Shown here piece by piece: positions 1-33,683 of a DNA stretch of 50,733 bases (position 1 is its first letter; each line of letters starts with the position of its first letter). Source of the DNA: a virus. Taxonomy: Duplodnaviria > Heunggongvirae > Uroviricota > Caudoviricetes. The DNA is taken from IMG/VR virus record IMGVR_UViG_2778261237_000025; one strand, given 5' to 3'. A program made the position numbers.

Positions 1-3000
1 CGGCAGTTCAGGCCAGATGACATCCGGCGCGGTGCTGGTATCTGTTGCCGTCACCGCGTCAATGTAATCCAGCACCGTGTTAAGTCGGTTGGTTTCTGCC
101 TGCGTCAGCTTCCGTCCGGCCTGTAATTTCAGCTGAATCAGACTAATGGAAGCCATTGCAGTATCAATCAGCGACTGGCGTTGTGTTTCTGCCGCTTCTA
201 CTGCGGCGCTATGCTGTGCTTCGGTATCCGTCACCCATTTCTCACCATCCCATTTATCGTATGGCGTTAACGGGGCGATAGTGGTTGTATTATCAGGGTA
301 ATCACCCGGAGCGGTGATTTCTTTTGATTCTCCTGTTTCGGTGCTAAAGACGATTTCACCGCGATGGTCTGGCACATATTCCCATGAGTTAAAATCTGCA
401 GAACGGCAGATTGCATAACCAGCTTTGTATGCGCCTGGGGCATCTAAACAGGAATATGCCGGAATGCCGACACCAATAGCAAGATATTCAGTTGAAGCTG
501 AAATATATTCCCGACTCATGACATCAAAGTTATAAACAGTAATTTCTCCTGCCATAGTGGCAATTAATTCACTGTTTAATTCTGCGTTATTCATTATGCA
601 GCCCTCACAATATAGTTAAAAGCGACATTTCGTGGGCGTGTTTCATTCGCACCTGCAGGTTTAGTCGTTGCCGCAACAACACCACCCTCTGTAATAGCCG
701 GGTTGGGAATTGGGTAATTATCGAAGTTAATGGCCGGAGACAGGGGCGTGATTTGTTTTAAAATCGTGGTGCCTGTAAAACTTTCCAGAGTCTGGTCGTT
801 AGTTCGTGAAGTCCAGATTCCCCAATAGTGGTTATGACTGACAATCGCACCGTCCTGAAGCGTCAATAATCCCCTTCCGTTATCCACTCCACGTCCGTCA
901 TCCCAGCCACGAATAAACTCACCACGTAAATCAGGCAATTTATTTGTCGGGTAAACCTTTGCCAGTTCCGGGTATTCTTCAGCAGAAAAAGCCGCCCCGT
1001 TGCATTTCAGCCAGCCTGTCGGCGGAGTGGCTGAAGGCCACGGAACAGGCACACCAACGGGTAATGCCGAACCTTCTCCCAAACCAACGTTTATGAAAAT
1101 GCAGAAATAACGGGTAACTGGCATCATCTCCGGTTTTTATTCAGGGAGATGCTCATGCTTATTGGCTATGTACGCGTGTCAACAAATGACCAGAACACGG
1201 AATTGCAGCGTAATGCGCTGGAGTGTGCAGGATGTGAGCTGATTTTTGAGGATAAAATCAGCGGCACGAAGTCCGACCGACCGGGACTGAAAAAACTGCT
1301 CAGAACATTATCAGCAGGTGACACTCTGGTAGTCTGGAAGCTGGATAGGCTGGGGCGTAGTATGCGGCATCTGGTCATTCTGGTTGAGGAACTGCGCGAA
1401 CGCGGCGTTAATTTTCGCAGCCTGACGGATGCTATTGATACCAGCACGCCGATGGGGCGCTTTTTCTTTCATGTGATGGGGGCCCTGGCAGAAATGGAGC
1501 GAGAACTCATTGTCGAGCGGACACGCGCCGGACTGGAAGCGGCCAGAGCCAAAGGTCGTATTGGTGGCAGACGACCGAAACTCACCACGAGTGAGTGGGA
1601 GCAGGTCGGACGGTTGCTGGCTGCGGGGGAATCTCGTCAACGTGTGGCGCTGATTTTTGATATTGGCCTGTCCACGCTCTATAAAAAATTCCCCTCATCA
1701 GCGACAAAGAATAAATTGTGTCATCCCTTAGCCAACCGGGACAAATAGCCTGACATCTCCGGCACAACTGAAAATATCACTCACCCATTAACCACGGAGT
1801 TAAACGGATGAGTGATTATCATCACGGCGTGCAGGTGCTGGAGATTAACGACGGCACCCGCGTCATTTCCACCGTATCCACCGCCATTGTCGGCATGGTC
1901 TGCACGGCCAGCGATGCGGATGCGGAAACCTTCCCCCTCAATAAACCTGTGCTGATTACCAATGTGCAGAGCGCAATTGCAAAGGCCGGTAAAAAAGGCA
2001 CGCTGGCGGCATCGTTGCAGGCCATCGCTGACCAGTCAAAACCGGTTACCGTTGTCGTGCGTGTTGAAGACGGCACCGGCGACGACGAAGAAACGAAACT
2101 CGCGCAGACCGTTTCCAATATCATCGGCACCACTGACGAAAACGGTCAGTATACCGGACTGAAAGCCCTGCTGGCGGCAGAGTCGGTAACCGGTGTTAAA
2201 CCGCGTATTCTCGGCGTGCCGGGACTGGACACCAAAGAGGTGGCTGTTGCACTGGCATCAGTCTGTCAGAAGCTGCGCGCTTTCGGGTATATCAGCGCAT
2301 GGGGCTGTAAAACCATTTCCGAGGTGAAAGCCTACCGCCAGAATTTCAGCCAGCGTGAGCTGATGGTCATCTGGCCGGATTTCCTCGCATGGGATACGGT
2401 CAGCAGCACCACCGCCACCGCGTATGCCACCGCCCGTGCGCTGGGTCTGCGCGCTAAAATCGACCAGGAGCAGGGCTGGCATAAAACGCTGTCCAACGTC
2501 GGGGTAAACGGTGTTAACGGCATCAGCGCATCTGTATTCTGGGATTTGCAGGAGTCCGGCACCGATGCTGACCTGCTTAACGAGTCAGGCGTCACTACGC
2601 TGATTCGCCGCGACGGTTTCCGCTTCTGGGGTAACCGTACCTGCTCTGATGACCCGCTGTTCCTCTTTGAAAACTACACCCGCACCGCGCAGGTGCTGGC
2701 CGACACGATGGCTGAGGCGCACATGTGGGCGGTGGACAAGCCCATCACCGCAACGCTGATTCGCGACATCGTTGACGGCATCAATGCCAAATTCCGTGAG
2801 CTGAAAACAAACGGCTATATCGTGGATGCGACCTGCTGGTTCAGCGAAGAATCCAGCGATGCGGAAACCCTCAAGGCCGGAAAACTGTATATCGACTACG
2901 ACTATACACCGGTACCTCCTCTTGAAAACCTGACCCTGCGCCAGCGTATCACCGATAAATACCTGGCAAATCTGGTCACCTCGGTTAACAGCAATTAAGG

Positions 3001-33000: not shown

Positions 33001-33683
33001 AACGTTTATGAAAATGCAGAAATAACGAGCAAATGGCATCATTCCTGCTTTTGTCAGGGAGATCTACCATGCTTATTGGCTATGTACGTGTGTCAACAAA
33101 TGACCAGAACACAGATCTACAACGTAATGCGCTGAACTGTGCAGGATGCGAGCTGATTTTTGAAGACAAGATAAGCGGTACAAAGTCCGAAAGGCCGGGA
33201 CTGAAAAAACTGCTCAGGACATTATCGGCAGGTGACACTCTGGTTGTCTGGAAACTGGATCGGCTGGGGCGCAGTATGCGGCATCTGGTCATTCTGGTTG
33301 AGGAGTTGCGCGAACGTGGCGTTAATTTTCGCAGCCTGACGGATGCTATTGATACCAGTACCCCAATGGGGCGCTTTTTCTTTCATGTGATGGGGGCCCT
33401 GGCTGAAATGGAACGAGAACTGATTGTTGAACGAACAAAAGCTGGACTGGAAGCTGCTCGCGCACAGGGACGAATTGGTGGACGTCGTCCCAAACTTACA
33501 CCAGAACAATGGGCGCAGGCCGGACGATTAATTGCAGCAGGAATTCCTCGCCAGAAGGTAGCGATCATCTATGATGTTGGTGTATCGACACTGTATAAGA
33601 AGTTTCCGGCCGGAGATAAATGAAACCGTAGCACGTCGTATGCAAGATCGTGCTGCGGTTTATGCTTACCACTTGAAGATTCA

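Follow-up and report, generated by a model that had tools for sequence, protein, structure and literature searches.

Composition of the window

The window, a stretch of 50,733 nucleotides (IMG/VR record IMGVR_UViG_2778261237_000025), is made of components that are all already known: a P2-like prophage and the prophage elements Sp1 and Sp2. Its right end coincides exactly with the start codon of a chromosomal LysR-family gene, while its left end falls at no gene boundary and removes the last 8 nt of the fibre-assembly gene tfa'; the former fits provirus-style trimming, the latter a contig end. Most likely, the window represents the beginning of a draft contig assembled from short reads of an O157:H7 isolate. 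The features of the phage part are:

1–31960, plus strand: complete O157:H7 P2-like (peduovirus) phage genome equivalent, permuted (identity to the EC4115 and strain 350 prophages)
1–594, minus strand: tfa', fibre-assembly gene of the alternative cassette, phage type (EC4115 coding sequence L001 19992-20594 corresponds to window -8 to 594; Pfam Caudo_TAP)
594–1127, minus strand: H', alternative tail-fibre C-terminal cassette, 177 aa, phage type (ORF; Pfam Collar)
1074–1099: 26-bp invertase crossover site, right side of the phage invertible segment (inverted repeat; identical to 32989-33014)
1155–1748, plus strand: phage serine invertase, 197 aa (Pfam Resolvase and HTH_7; alignment)
1808–8410, plus strand: P2 tail genes FI, FII, E/E', T, U and D, then ogr (ORFs; identical EC4115 annotation)
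8512–8539: att core in an intact attP, P arm on the ogr side and P' arm on the int side (comparison with attR and attL)
8619–14480: int and C (minus strand), then cox, B, small ORFs and A, the replication endonuclease (ORFs; Pfam at identical loci)
14570–18259, plus strand: intact Lamassu defence system, cargo at the P2 old/tin position (PADLOC; E-values of 3.5e-108 for LmuA, 1.5e-52 for LmuC and 1.5e-235 for LmuB)
18389–18407, plus strand: cos (exact match to the P2 19-mer)
18577–31516: late genes Q, P (minus strand), O, N, M, L, X, holin, K, lysA/B/C, R, S, V, W, J, I and H, the last of 399 aa (ORFs; Pfam)
31131–31156: invertase crossover site, left side of the phage segment, inside H (inverted repeat with ~1074-1099 and ~32989-33014)

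A complete P2-like phage in attP form

Positions 1-31960 amount to exactly one genome of a P2-like prophage that is found beside yegQ in O157:H7 strains, EC4115 among them. The spacing of the repeat in the window (1 to 31961) equals the core-to-core distance of 31,960 bp calculated from the EC4115 coordinates, and the two prophages share the invertible H/tfa segment, the invertase and Lamassu; identity to EC4115 is 100% over 1-8539, with 2 differing positions (17777 and 31540) over 11961-31960, and strain 350 matches over 8505-28259 at 99.97%. The difference lies in where the genome is opened. The EC4115/TW14359-type prophage is integrated by Int in the normal way, with attL by yegR/yegS and attR by yegQ, which ogrK adjoins, whereas here ogr (8192-8410) and int (8619-9632, minus strand) lie side by side with a 28-nt stretch (8512-8539) between them, and the break falls within the tail-fibre module, at the convergent tfa/tfa' ends of the invertible segment. 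The circular permutation proposed in an earlier reading of the sequence alone is borne out by this comparison.

The 28-nt stretch is common to the attR of EC4115 and the attL of strain 350. In a three-way comparison, agreement with attR extends along the left arm as far as 8539, and agreement with attL begins at 8512 and covers the right arm, so the stretch sits in a true attP; the unbroken 27-bp core that the sequence-only reading had placed at 8513-8539 lies inside it. The exact attP 63-mer also occurs in a 33.6-kb phage contig, while the contiguous junction is found in 0 of 5,426 closed E. coli genomes. A misjoin at the att core was considered and rejected, the core of 28 nt being far shorter than the ~75-nt fork offset described below; because a repeat of this length cannot create an attP junction at k ~75, attP-form DNA must really have been present.

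The order of genes is that of the circular map of P2 (Peduovirus), D-ogr-attP-int-C-cox-B-A...cos-Q-P...H-G-FI, and P2 is contiguous across ogr-attP-int (7900-9878) at 97.5% identity. P2 itself has a fixed H-G arrangement, with Z/fun and old/tin. In contrast, the old/tin position of this phage is taken by Lamassu, and a Mu/P1-type invertible segment with its invertase separates G from FI. The 19-nt sequence that we take to be the P2 cohesive end has a single exact match, at 18389-18407, with 0 expected by chance; together with the full set of P2 functions, it makes a circular phage form plausible. In line with this, circular forms of several O157 Sakai prophages, the P2-like Sp13 included, have been detected by PCR (PMC2669165).

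Two invertible tail-fibre modules

The phage module is of the Din type, a serine invertase adjoining a segment bounded by inverted 26-bp crossover sites, and a second such module lies to the right of the phage. The two had been described as alike in their conserved parts and unlike in the tail-fibre cassette and the invertase C-terminus, and the alignments agree: 1-273 and 31961-32233 are 92% identical, 1071-1693 and 32986-33607 are 83% identical (90% over 1154-1453), the cassettes between them are unrelated, and the invertases share 164 of 197 residues and differ at their C-termini. ORFs and annotation likewise place FI after the first invertase and unrelated, non-P2 DNA after the second. Of the two crossover cores proposed earlier, the first falls at the site 1074-1099 and the second, at 33008-33022, is 20 nt out of register with the true site at 32989-33014.

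The right-hand module, moreover, is not phage DNA. The second module (31140-33623) belongs to the resident lambdoid remnant at thrW, labelled prophage Sp1 in the Sakai annotation, and is followed by Sp2, which has been described as P4-like (PMC2669165); identity to this locus is 99.94% over 31140-50733, and 32036-50733 is identical to strain 3-5-1 except for two single-base indels. A 46.9-kb 'plasmid' record that matches the Sp1 side turned out to be a normal piece of the chromosome at thrW. The features of this part are:

31140–32035, plus strand: region R, shared by phage and Sp1, with the H C-terminal cassette, tfa (31537-31980) and the 3' end of tfa' (SNP table; phasing across loci)
31931–32035: switch interval of 105 bp from phage to Sp1 type, identical in both parents (SNP comparison)
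31952–32545, minus strand: Sp1 tfa' (annotation of the identical locus)
32036–36500: right part of the Sp1 lambdoid remnant (identity to strain 3-5-1; annotation)
32545–33042, minus strand: Sp1 truncated H' (annotation of the identical locus)
32989–33014: Sp1 crossover site (identical to 1074-1099)
33069–33623: pinE (annotation of the identical locus)
33681–34505, minus strand: PD-T4-3/GIY-YIG gene (annotation)
35278–36021: AraC regulator (annotation)
36063–36428, minus strand: transposase fragment (annotation)
36933–49158: P4-like satellite Sp2, with integrase, decayed Lamassu, delta/ogr-like, psu, sid, alpA and primase genes (annotation; Pfam; PADLOC)
49834–50733, minus strand: chromosomal LysR-family gene (ORFs; annotation of the identical locus)

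In all closed genomes the sequence to the left of this Sp1 locus consists of Sp1 replication genes and a truncated fibre gene, whereas the window has phage H. This join was searched for widely. Neither a 136-mer nor a 161-mer spanning it has a perfect match in closed genomes or in the viral, metagenome or genome collections, it is absent from the 5,426 closed E. coli genomes, and BLAST against phages and plasmids returned no record that contains it. Exact-protein look-ups (H, tfa, LmuB, an Sp2 protein and a 36-aa ORF spanning attP) led to common O157 contexts or to nothing. Two loci with a Mu gp48-like gene beside a pinE module (L023 and L026) were set aside as candidates for an O157 rearrangement, as they come from another lineage at about 92% identity.

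The join lies in a region shared by phage and Sp1

Phage and Sp1 have 0.9 kb in common, region R, at about 99% identity and with a mosaic allele pattern. Ten discriminating SNPs, from 31223 to 31930, carry the phage type past the left crossover site, and the Sp1 type begins at 32036. The switch thus falls in the 105-bp interval 31931-32035, about 0.8 kb inside the invertible segment from the left site and about 0.95 kb from the right one. These distances refute, for the visible junction, the earlier suggestion that an invertase (Pin or the phage enzyme) fused the crossover sites of the two modules, an origin that we regard as very improbable. Three near-identical 26-bp sites and two invertases are indeed present, and the Din-family systems (e14 Pin, Mu Gin, P1 Cin and Salmonella Hin) share the serine invertase, the inverted 26-bp sites and the convergent fibre-tip and assembly cassettes; what these systems invert, however, is a segment of a single module. 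An exchange at the central dinucleotide of a site would replace segments in their entirety, yet phage type persists past the left site and Sp1 type starts about 950 bp before the right one. Another draft (L010), which also takes a cross path through R that is seen in no closed genome, again switches internally, at 31250-31754.

The left end of the window falls in the same interval. Base 1 is the counterpart of 31961, and the two copies agree over bases 1-75 (31961-32035) before they first differ at position 76, so that the contig end coincides with the repeat fork; two other draft contigs (L014 and L015) begin exactly 64 nt ahead of a phage/Sp1 SNP in R. A third related module as the cause of the contig end was rejected, given that EC4115-type genomes hold two copies only of this junction region. 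Simple overlap of a circular contig was rejected as well, the module copies being identical for 75 nt only. The sequence-only reading had named identity of the copies as its sign of an assembly artefact; this test is too narrow, because assembly graph and contig are the same for an insertion as for a free phage circle that has a repeat in common with the chromosome.

Within the otherwise phage-type R, position 31540 carries the Sp1 allele G. We rejected it as a genuine phage allele, since it is missing from all closed genomes; no closed genome matches 31200-31800 at 100% identity. The tfa protein with this allele occurs in 156 index blocks (subdivisions of the index of the contig collection), none with a contig over 1 Mb, whereas the adjacent H protein occurs in 24 blocks with contigs over 1 Mb. 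The allele mix of R is thus found in short-read drafts only and never in closed genomes, a strong indication that R is here an unphased or collapsed consensus of two copies. As a Campbell-type integration would predict, the right junction lies within a tract of homology between phage and Sp1, albeit one that is unphased in this contig.

Origin of the arrangement

Taken together, these observations point to a probable short-read contig, in which the path makes one circuit of a phage in attP form and then leaves by way of a repeat that is unphased. Two causes would yield the same contig, a free circular phage with an assembly path through R or a real homologous integration into Sp1, and insertion and assembly path are for this reason indistinguishable here. 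The left junction also lies outside the window, as the first difference between phage and Sp1 comes only 75 nt after its start.

We favour the free attP-form circle, with a probability of roughly 0.45. Most phage DNA in the sample would then be in attP form (excised, replicating or packaged), with no physical link to Sp1, and the circle would appear in the assembly graph as a simple loop, attached to the chromosome by R. If every segment is used a single time, the path would start on the phage side of the fork, go round the circle to R and leave by the sole unused exit, on the Sp1 side; the resulting contig would circle the complete phage once and then run via R into Sp1, on to Sp2 and finally into chromosomal DNA. 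What looks like a permuted prophage between two diverged modules would accordingly be a path through an ambiguous graph and not a demonstrated insertion. The start of the window in the interval where the contig changes type, the comparable offset of L014 and L015, the Sp1 allele at 31540 among R alleles missing from closed genomes, the lack of both the attP junction and the phage-to-Sp1 join in closed genomes and the cross path in L010 all support this reading. The pattern resembles that of collapsed repeats and loops in de Bruijn graphs, with a k-mer-like start 75 nt before a fork, mixed alleles and junctions missing from closed genomes; it differs in the attP junction, for which the 28-nt repeat is too short at k ~75.

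Several points count against a free circle. The contig is unbroken through att, which means that few reads can have carried attR or attL, and the choice of Sp1-type branches at 31540 and at the exit suggests similar depth for phage and Sp1, which is hard to reconcile with an induced lysogen (an integrated copy plus many free ones) and appears to fit a single integrated copy better. Neither is a wrong turn in the 105-bp repeat the expected error, this being the easiest part of R for read pairs, and P2-type phages are classically not inducible (PMC2669165).

A physical join is a realistic, if less favoured, possibility. The lineage's own P2-like prophage might have left yegQ and re-entered the chromosome by a Campbell-type crossover in R, inside the invertible tail-fibre segment of Sp1, with the predicted product thrW-Sp1(left)-R-[tfa'..invertase-FI..ogr-attP-int..H]-R-Sp1(right). 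Phage and Sp1 lie about 2.4 Mb apart in inverted orientation, so that an R x R inversion is possible; the move could have proceeded either by way of a circle that was excised by Int/Cox and then crossed over with Sp1 through RecA, or by an R x R inversion followed by an Int-mediated attL x attR inversion that restored the chromosome and left the permuted prophage in Sp1. One such event would account for both unusual junctions, and R would become a two-copy repeat, which would stop the contig at base 1. The phage is exactly one unit, with no gain or loss, and its identity to the lineage's own prophage points to an internal source; Sp1 is the sole other copy of the junction region in EC4115-type genomes, and the unforked attP and the mixed alleles in R suggest one phage copy per chromosome. 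On the other hand, about 150 closed genomes with both elements contain 0 exchanges between phage and Sp1, and the prior probability that such a relocation would become fixed in an isolate is low. From a single crossover one would expect a clean change from phage to Sp1 rather than an Sp1 allele at 31540, and a path across a demonstrably unphased R is weak evidence. Of the earlier proposal of insertion by recombination within a resident module, the attP permutation and the join by homology stand, and the invertase option does not.

Such an integration would resemble known events in O157:H7, where exchange in shared prophage DNA is well established as a cause of rearrangement, both in large prophage-mediated changes of the chromosome (PMC8743559) and in recombination from prophage to prophage (PMC2669165). 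In the literature we found no O157:H7 rearrangement involving this P2-like phage or putting attP inside the chromosome, and no report of this phage recombining with Sp1. To our knowledge, the published O157:H7 cases are inversions, duplications or translocations that leave the att sites untouched.

As is established for P2 and lambda, the middle junction of a tandem lysogen is also an attP, and a double lysogen at yegQ (attL-phage-attP-phage-attR), its second copy having recombined with Sp1 through R in a large inversion or been deleted, would therefore explain the intact core; given the inverted orientation of phage and Sp1, an R x R exchange would moreover give H-R-Sp1(right). We consider this origin, raised earlier in the form with a deletion, unlikely. 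One phage genome equivalent is visible, with no second copy, and its right side exits into Sp1 and not into attR. Two copies should fork a short-read contig at att, between attP and attR, and phage alleles should win every bubble in R (a fork at a SNP between the two repeat copies), yet 31540 is of Sp1 type. Nor would this origin explain why the window starts within the switch interval, and attP occurs in no closed genome.

Implications of the two readings

If the join is physical, a complete helper phage with an intact attP could not be excised by Int and would lie directly beside the P4-like satellite Sp2. On either side of the phage there would be a hybrid invertible segment, with four crossover sites and two invertases in all, and host-range cassettes could flip or be reshuffled between a live and a dead phage. 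A temperate phage would thus have changed its chromosomal address through homology with a defective prophage, by an exchange inside the host-range module, and the case would add usefully, though only incrementally, to the examples of recombination between O157:H7 prophages. If the contig instead reflects a free circle and a path through the assembly graph, our preferred reading, R would be systematically unphased in short-read O157 drafts, and the chimeric alleles and cross-joined contigs that result could be mistaken for rearrangements or novel prophage architectures.

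A complete phage genome opened in its tail-fibre segment

The window DNA is that of E. coli O157:H7. Bases 1-8539, spanning tfa' through the last base of the att core, match the P2-like prophage carried by EC4115 at 100%, and 11961-31960, from gene A to tfa, differ from it only at 17777 and 31540; the int, C, cox and B stretch between 8539 and 11961 is 99.97% identical to the same prophage in strain 350. ORFs and Pfam matches give a full P2 gene set, and the 19-mer at 18389-18407 exactly matches the P2 cohesive-end (cos) sequence. In EC4115, and in all other closed genomes examined, this prophage is integrated in the normal way (yegS/yegR-attL-int ... 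ogrK-attR-yegQ). Calculated from the EC4115 coordinates, its two att cores lie 31,960 bp apart. The module copies in the window, at 1 and 31961, are spaced by exactly this distance, from which 1-31960 reads as a single whole phage genome, with neither loss nor gain, opened in the tail-fibre segment and not at att. The circular permutation proposed by the sequence-only reading is thereby borne out; beside this single unit, a tandem lysogen followed by rearrangement, offered there as a tandem double lysogen with deletion, looks improbable.

In a comparison with both att junctions, the window follows attR up to 8539 and attL from 8512:

8512-8539, att common core, 28 nt, flanked by ogr-side and int-side arms

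The pattern marks this stretch, with its arms, as a genuine attP, upholding the proposed contiguity of ogr, att core and int. Phage P2 is contiguous over the region at 97.5% identity, and the exact attP 63-mer also occurs in a 33.6-kb phage contig. Of the 5,426 closed E. coli genomes, not one has a contiguous ogr-att-int arrangement; every match splits at ~8505.

H is one intact 399-aa ORF in the window, identical in sequence to the EC4115 region (window 30317-31516; 18357-19556 of that prophage locus) that RefSeq annotates as a 'partial' pseudogene plus a gp53-like CDS.

The right-hand module and the switch point

Over 31140-50733 the window shares 99.94% identity with a thrW-linked locus in strain 3-5-1, annotated in Sakai as prophage Sp1; on this match, the right-hand module is Sp1 DNA and not phage. 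Sp1 is degraded and Sp2 is P4-like (PMC2669165). The order and shared features are as follows.

31140-32035, R (~0.9 kb): H C-terminal cassette, tfa and 3' end of tfa', common to phage and Sp1
31131-31156 and 32989-33014, invertase crossover sites; the phage's own right site is 1074-1099
Sp1, degraded lambdoid prophage: invertible segment, pinE, GIY-YIG gene, AraC regulator, transposase fragment
After Sp1: P4-like Sp2, then a chromosomal LysR gene

Eleven sites vary among closed-genome copies of R. The window carries phage-type alleles at 31223, 31249, 31755, 31842, 31866, 31873, 31875, 31926, 31927 and 31930, and Sp1-type sequence from 32036 onward, so the switch lies inside 31931-32035, 105 bp that are identical in both parents. 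This interval is ~0.8 kb and ~0.95 kb away from the two crossover sites. An invertase-mediated fusion of the phage and Sp1 modules, also suggested from the sequence, would exchange whole segments site-specifically; it is refuted for the visible junction and is extremely improbable overall. The crossover core earlier placed at 33008-33022 was 20 nt out of register, the actual site being 32989-33014.

In closed genome SS52 (CP010304.1; L027, 1650-2807), the Sp1 copy of R is phage-type at 31842, 31866 and 31873 and otherwise Sp1-type, which points either to a patch of gene conversion involving both prophages or to an artefact of polishing. Beyond R, the window differs from strain 3-5-1 only by 1-nt indels at 40617 (A8 in the window, the widespread allele; A7 in 3-5-1) and 42783 (in a sid-like gene, intact in the window and annotated as frameshifted in 3-5-1); the 3-5-1 state at 40617, and probably at 42783, is likely a sequence error or private mutation. 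A linear 46,899-bp record labelled 'plasmid pAR-0428-2' (NZ_CP044147.1) is ordinary chromosomal DNA (fadE...thrW-Sp1-Sp2-LysR) with many frameshifted genes, and likely an unplaced contig of the chromosome.

Reliability of the path through R

Window base 1 corresponds to 31961, within the switch interval, and the left junction of any insertion therefore falls outside the window. Bases 1-75 equal 31961-32035, with the first mismatch at base 76. Base 1 coincides with no gene boundary and the right end falls exactly at the LysR start codon; the left edge thus resembles a contig end, and the right edge gene-boundary trimming. Two draft contigs (L014 and L015) begin exactly 64 nt ahead of a phage/Sp1 SNP in R, the same behaviour, limited by the fork at which the two R copies diverge in the assembly graph.

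At 31540 the window has the Sp1 allele G amid phage-type flanks. The resulting tfa protein occurs in 156 blocks of the contig-collection index, none with contigs >1 Mb, against 24 blocks with such contigs for the adjacent H protein; among 50-200 kb blocks the counts are 45 and 96, about half, as expected if an unphaseable SNP were settled at random. No closed genome matches 31200-31800 perfectly (best 99.8%). This allele mix, seen in drafts but in no closed genome, strongly indicates that R in the window is a consensus in which two copies were left unphased.

Closed genomes yielded no perfect match to the phage-to-Sp1 join, and neither did the viral, metagenome and genome collections. One draft (L010, 3000-7500; GCA_011904065.1, AARDWE010000015.1) carries the opposite cross join, from Sp1-left through R into phage tfa'/H'/invertase/FI...ogr and then yegQ, switching between 31250 and 31754 (window coordinates). 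This join is absent from closed genomes and reflects either a misjoin or a genuine inversion of 2.4 Mb between Sp1 and the P2-like prophage.

Free circle or integration into Sp1

We infer that attP-form phage DNA was really present in the source, because the 28-nt core is too short for a misjoin at a fork offset of ~75 nt, and that it outnumbered attR and attL, because the contig is unbroken at att. The assembly graph would then be a phage circle hung on the chromosome via R, and the same graph arises from a free circular phage with an ordinary Sp1 or from one phage copy integrated in Sp1 by crossover in R. We favour the former, at roughly 45%: the phage would be circular, Sp1 ordinary, and their join a path through R. 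Other O157 prophages have been documented in circular form (PMC2669165), the path across R is demonstrably unreliable, and ~150 closed genomes with both elements show no phage x Sp1 exchange.

The last two points count against a real homologous integration, which we rate as only slightly less likely. In its favour, attP is unforked, the Sp1 alleles at 31540 and at the exit suggest a phage-to-chromosome ratio near one, with yegQ unoccupied, and read pairs should easily resolve a 105-bp repeat. It could have proceeded by excision and RecA crossover or, because phage and Sp1 are in inverted orientation, by R x R inversion and then an Int-mediated attL x attR inversion that would restore the chromosome. 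The weighing hinges on assembler behaviour. Homologous exchange among O157 prophages is established (PMC8743559; PMC2669165), and integration, if true, would add one more example of a mechanism already known.

Defence genes and relation to known elements

An intact three-gene Lamassu system (14570-18259) occupies the P2 old/tin position of the phage, with PADLOC E-values of 3.5e-108 (LmuA), 1.5e-52 (LmuC) and 1.5e-235 (LmuB). A second, decayed-looking Lamassu (38169-41445) lies in Sp2, its split form being the allele usual in O157 (9,351 index blocks):

38169-38585 and 38558-39175, LmuA, split in two ORFs
39160-39633, LmuC
39599-40258, 40289-40879 and 40879-41445, LmuB, split in three ORFs

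Just downstream of pinE, the Sp1 gene at 33681-34505 (minus strand) carries a LEM-3-like GIY-YIG annotation and falls in the PD-T4-3 family of anti-phage defence genes by a match with E = 2.3e-140.

All components are already known: the phage part is the O157 yegQ P2-like phage, the right-hand part consists of Sp1/pinE and the P4-like Sp2, and the modules are of the Mu/P1/e14 invertible-fibre type, which related phages, pro483 among them, carry as well. In a different E. coli lineage (L023, CP051816.1, and L026, JBHJLY010000001.1; 1-3400 in both loci), a ~92% identical pinE-type invertible module directly follows a Mu gp48-like baseplate gene, and thus one fibre/invertase module is common to Mu-like, P2-like and lambdoid prophages.
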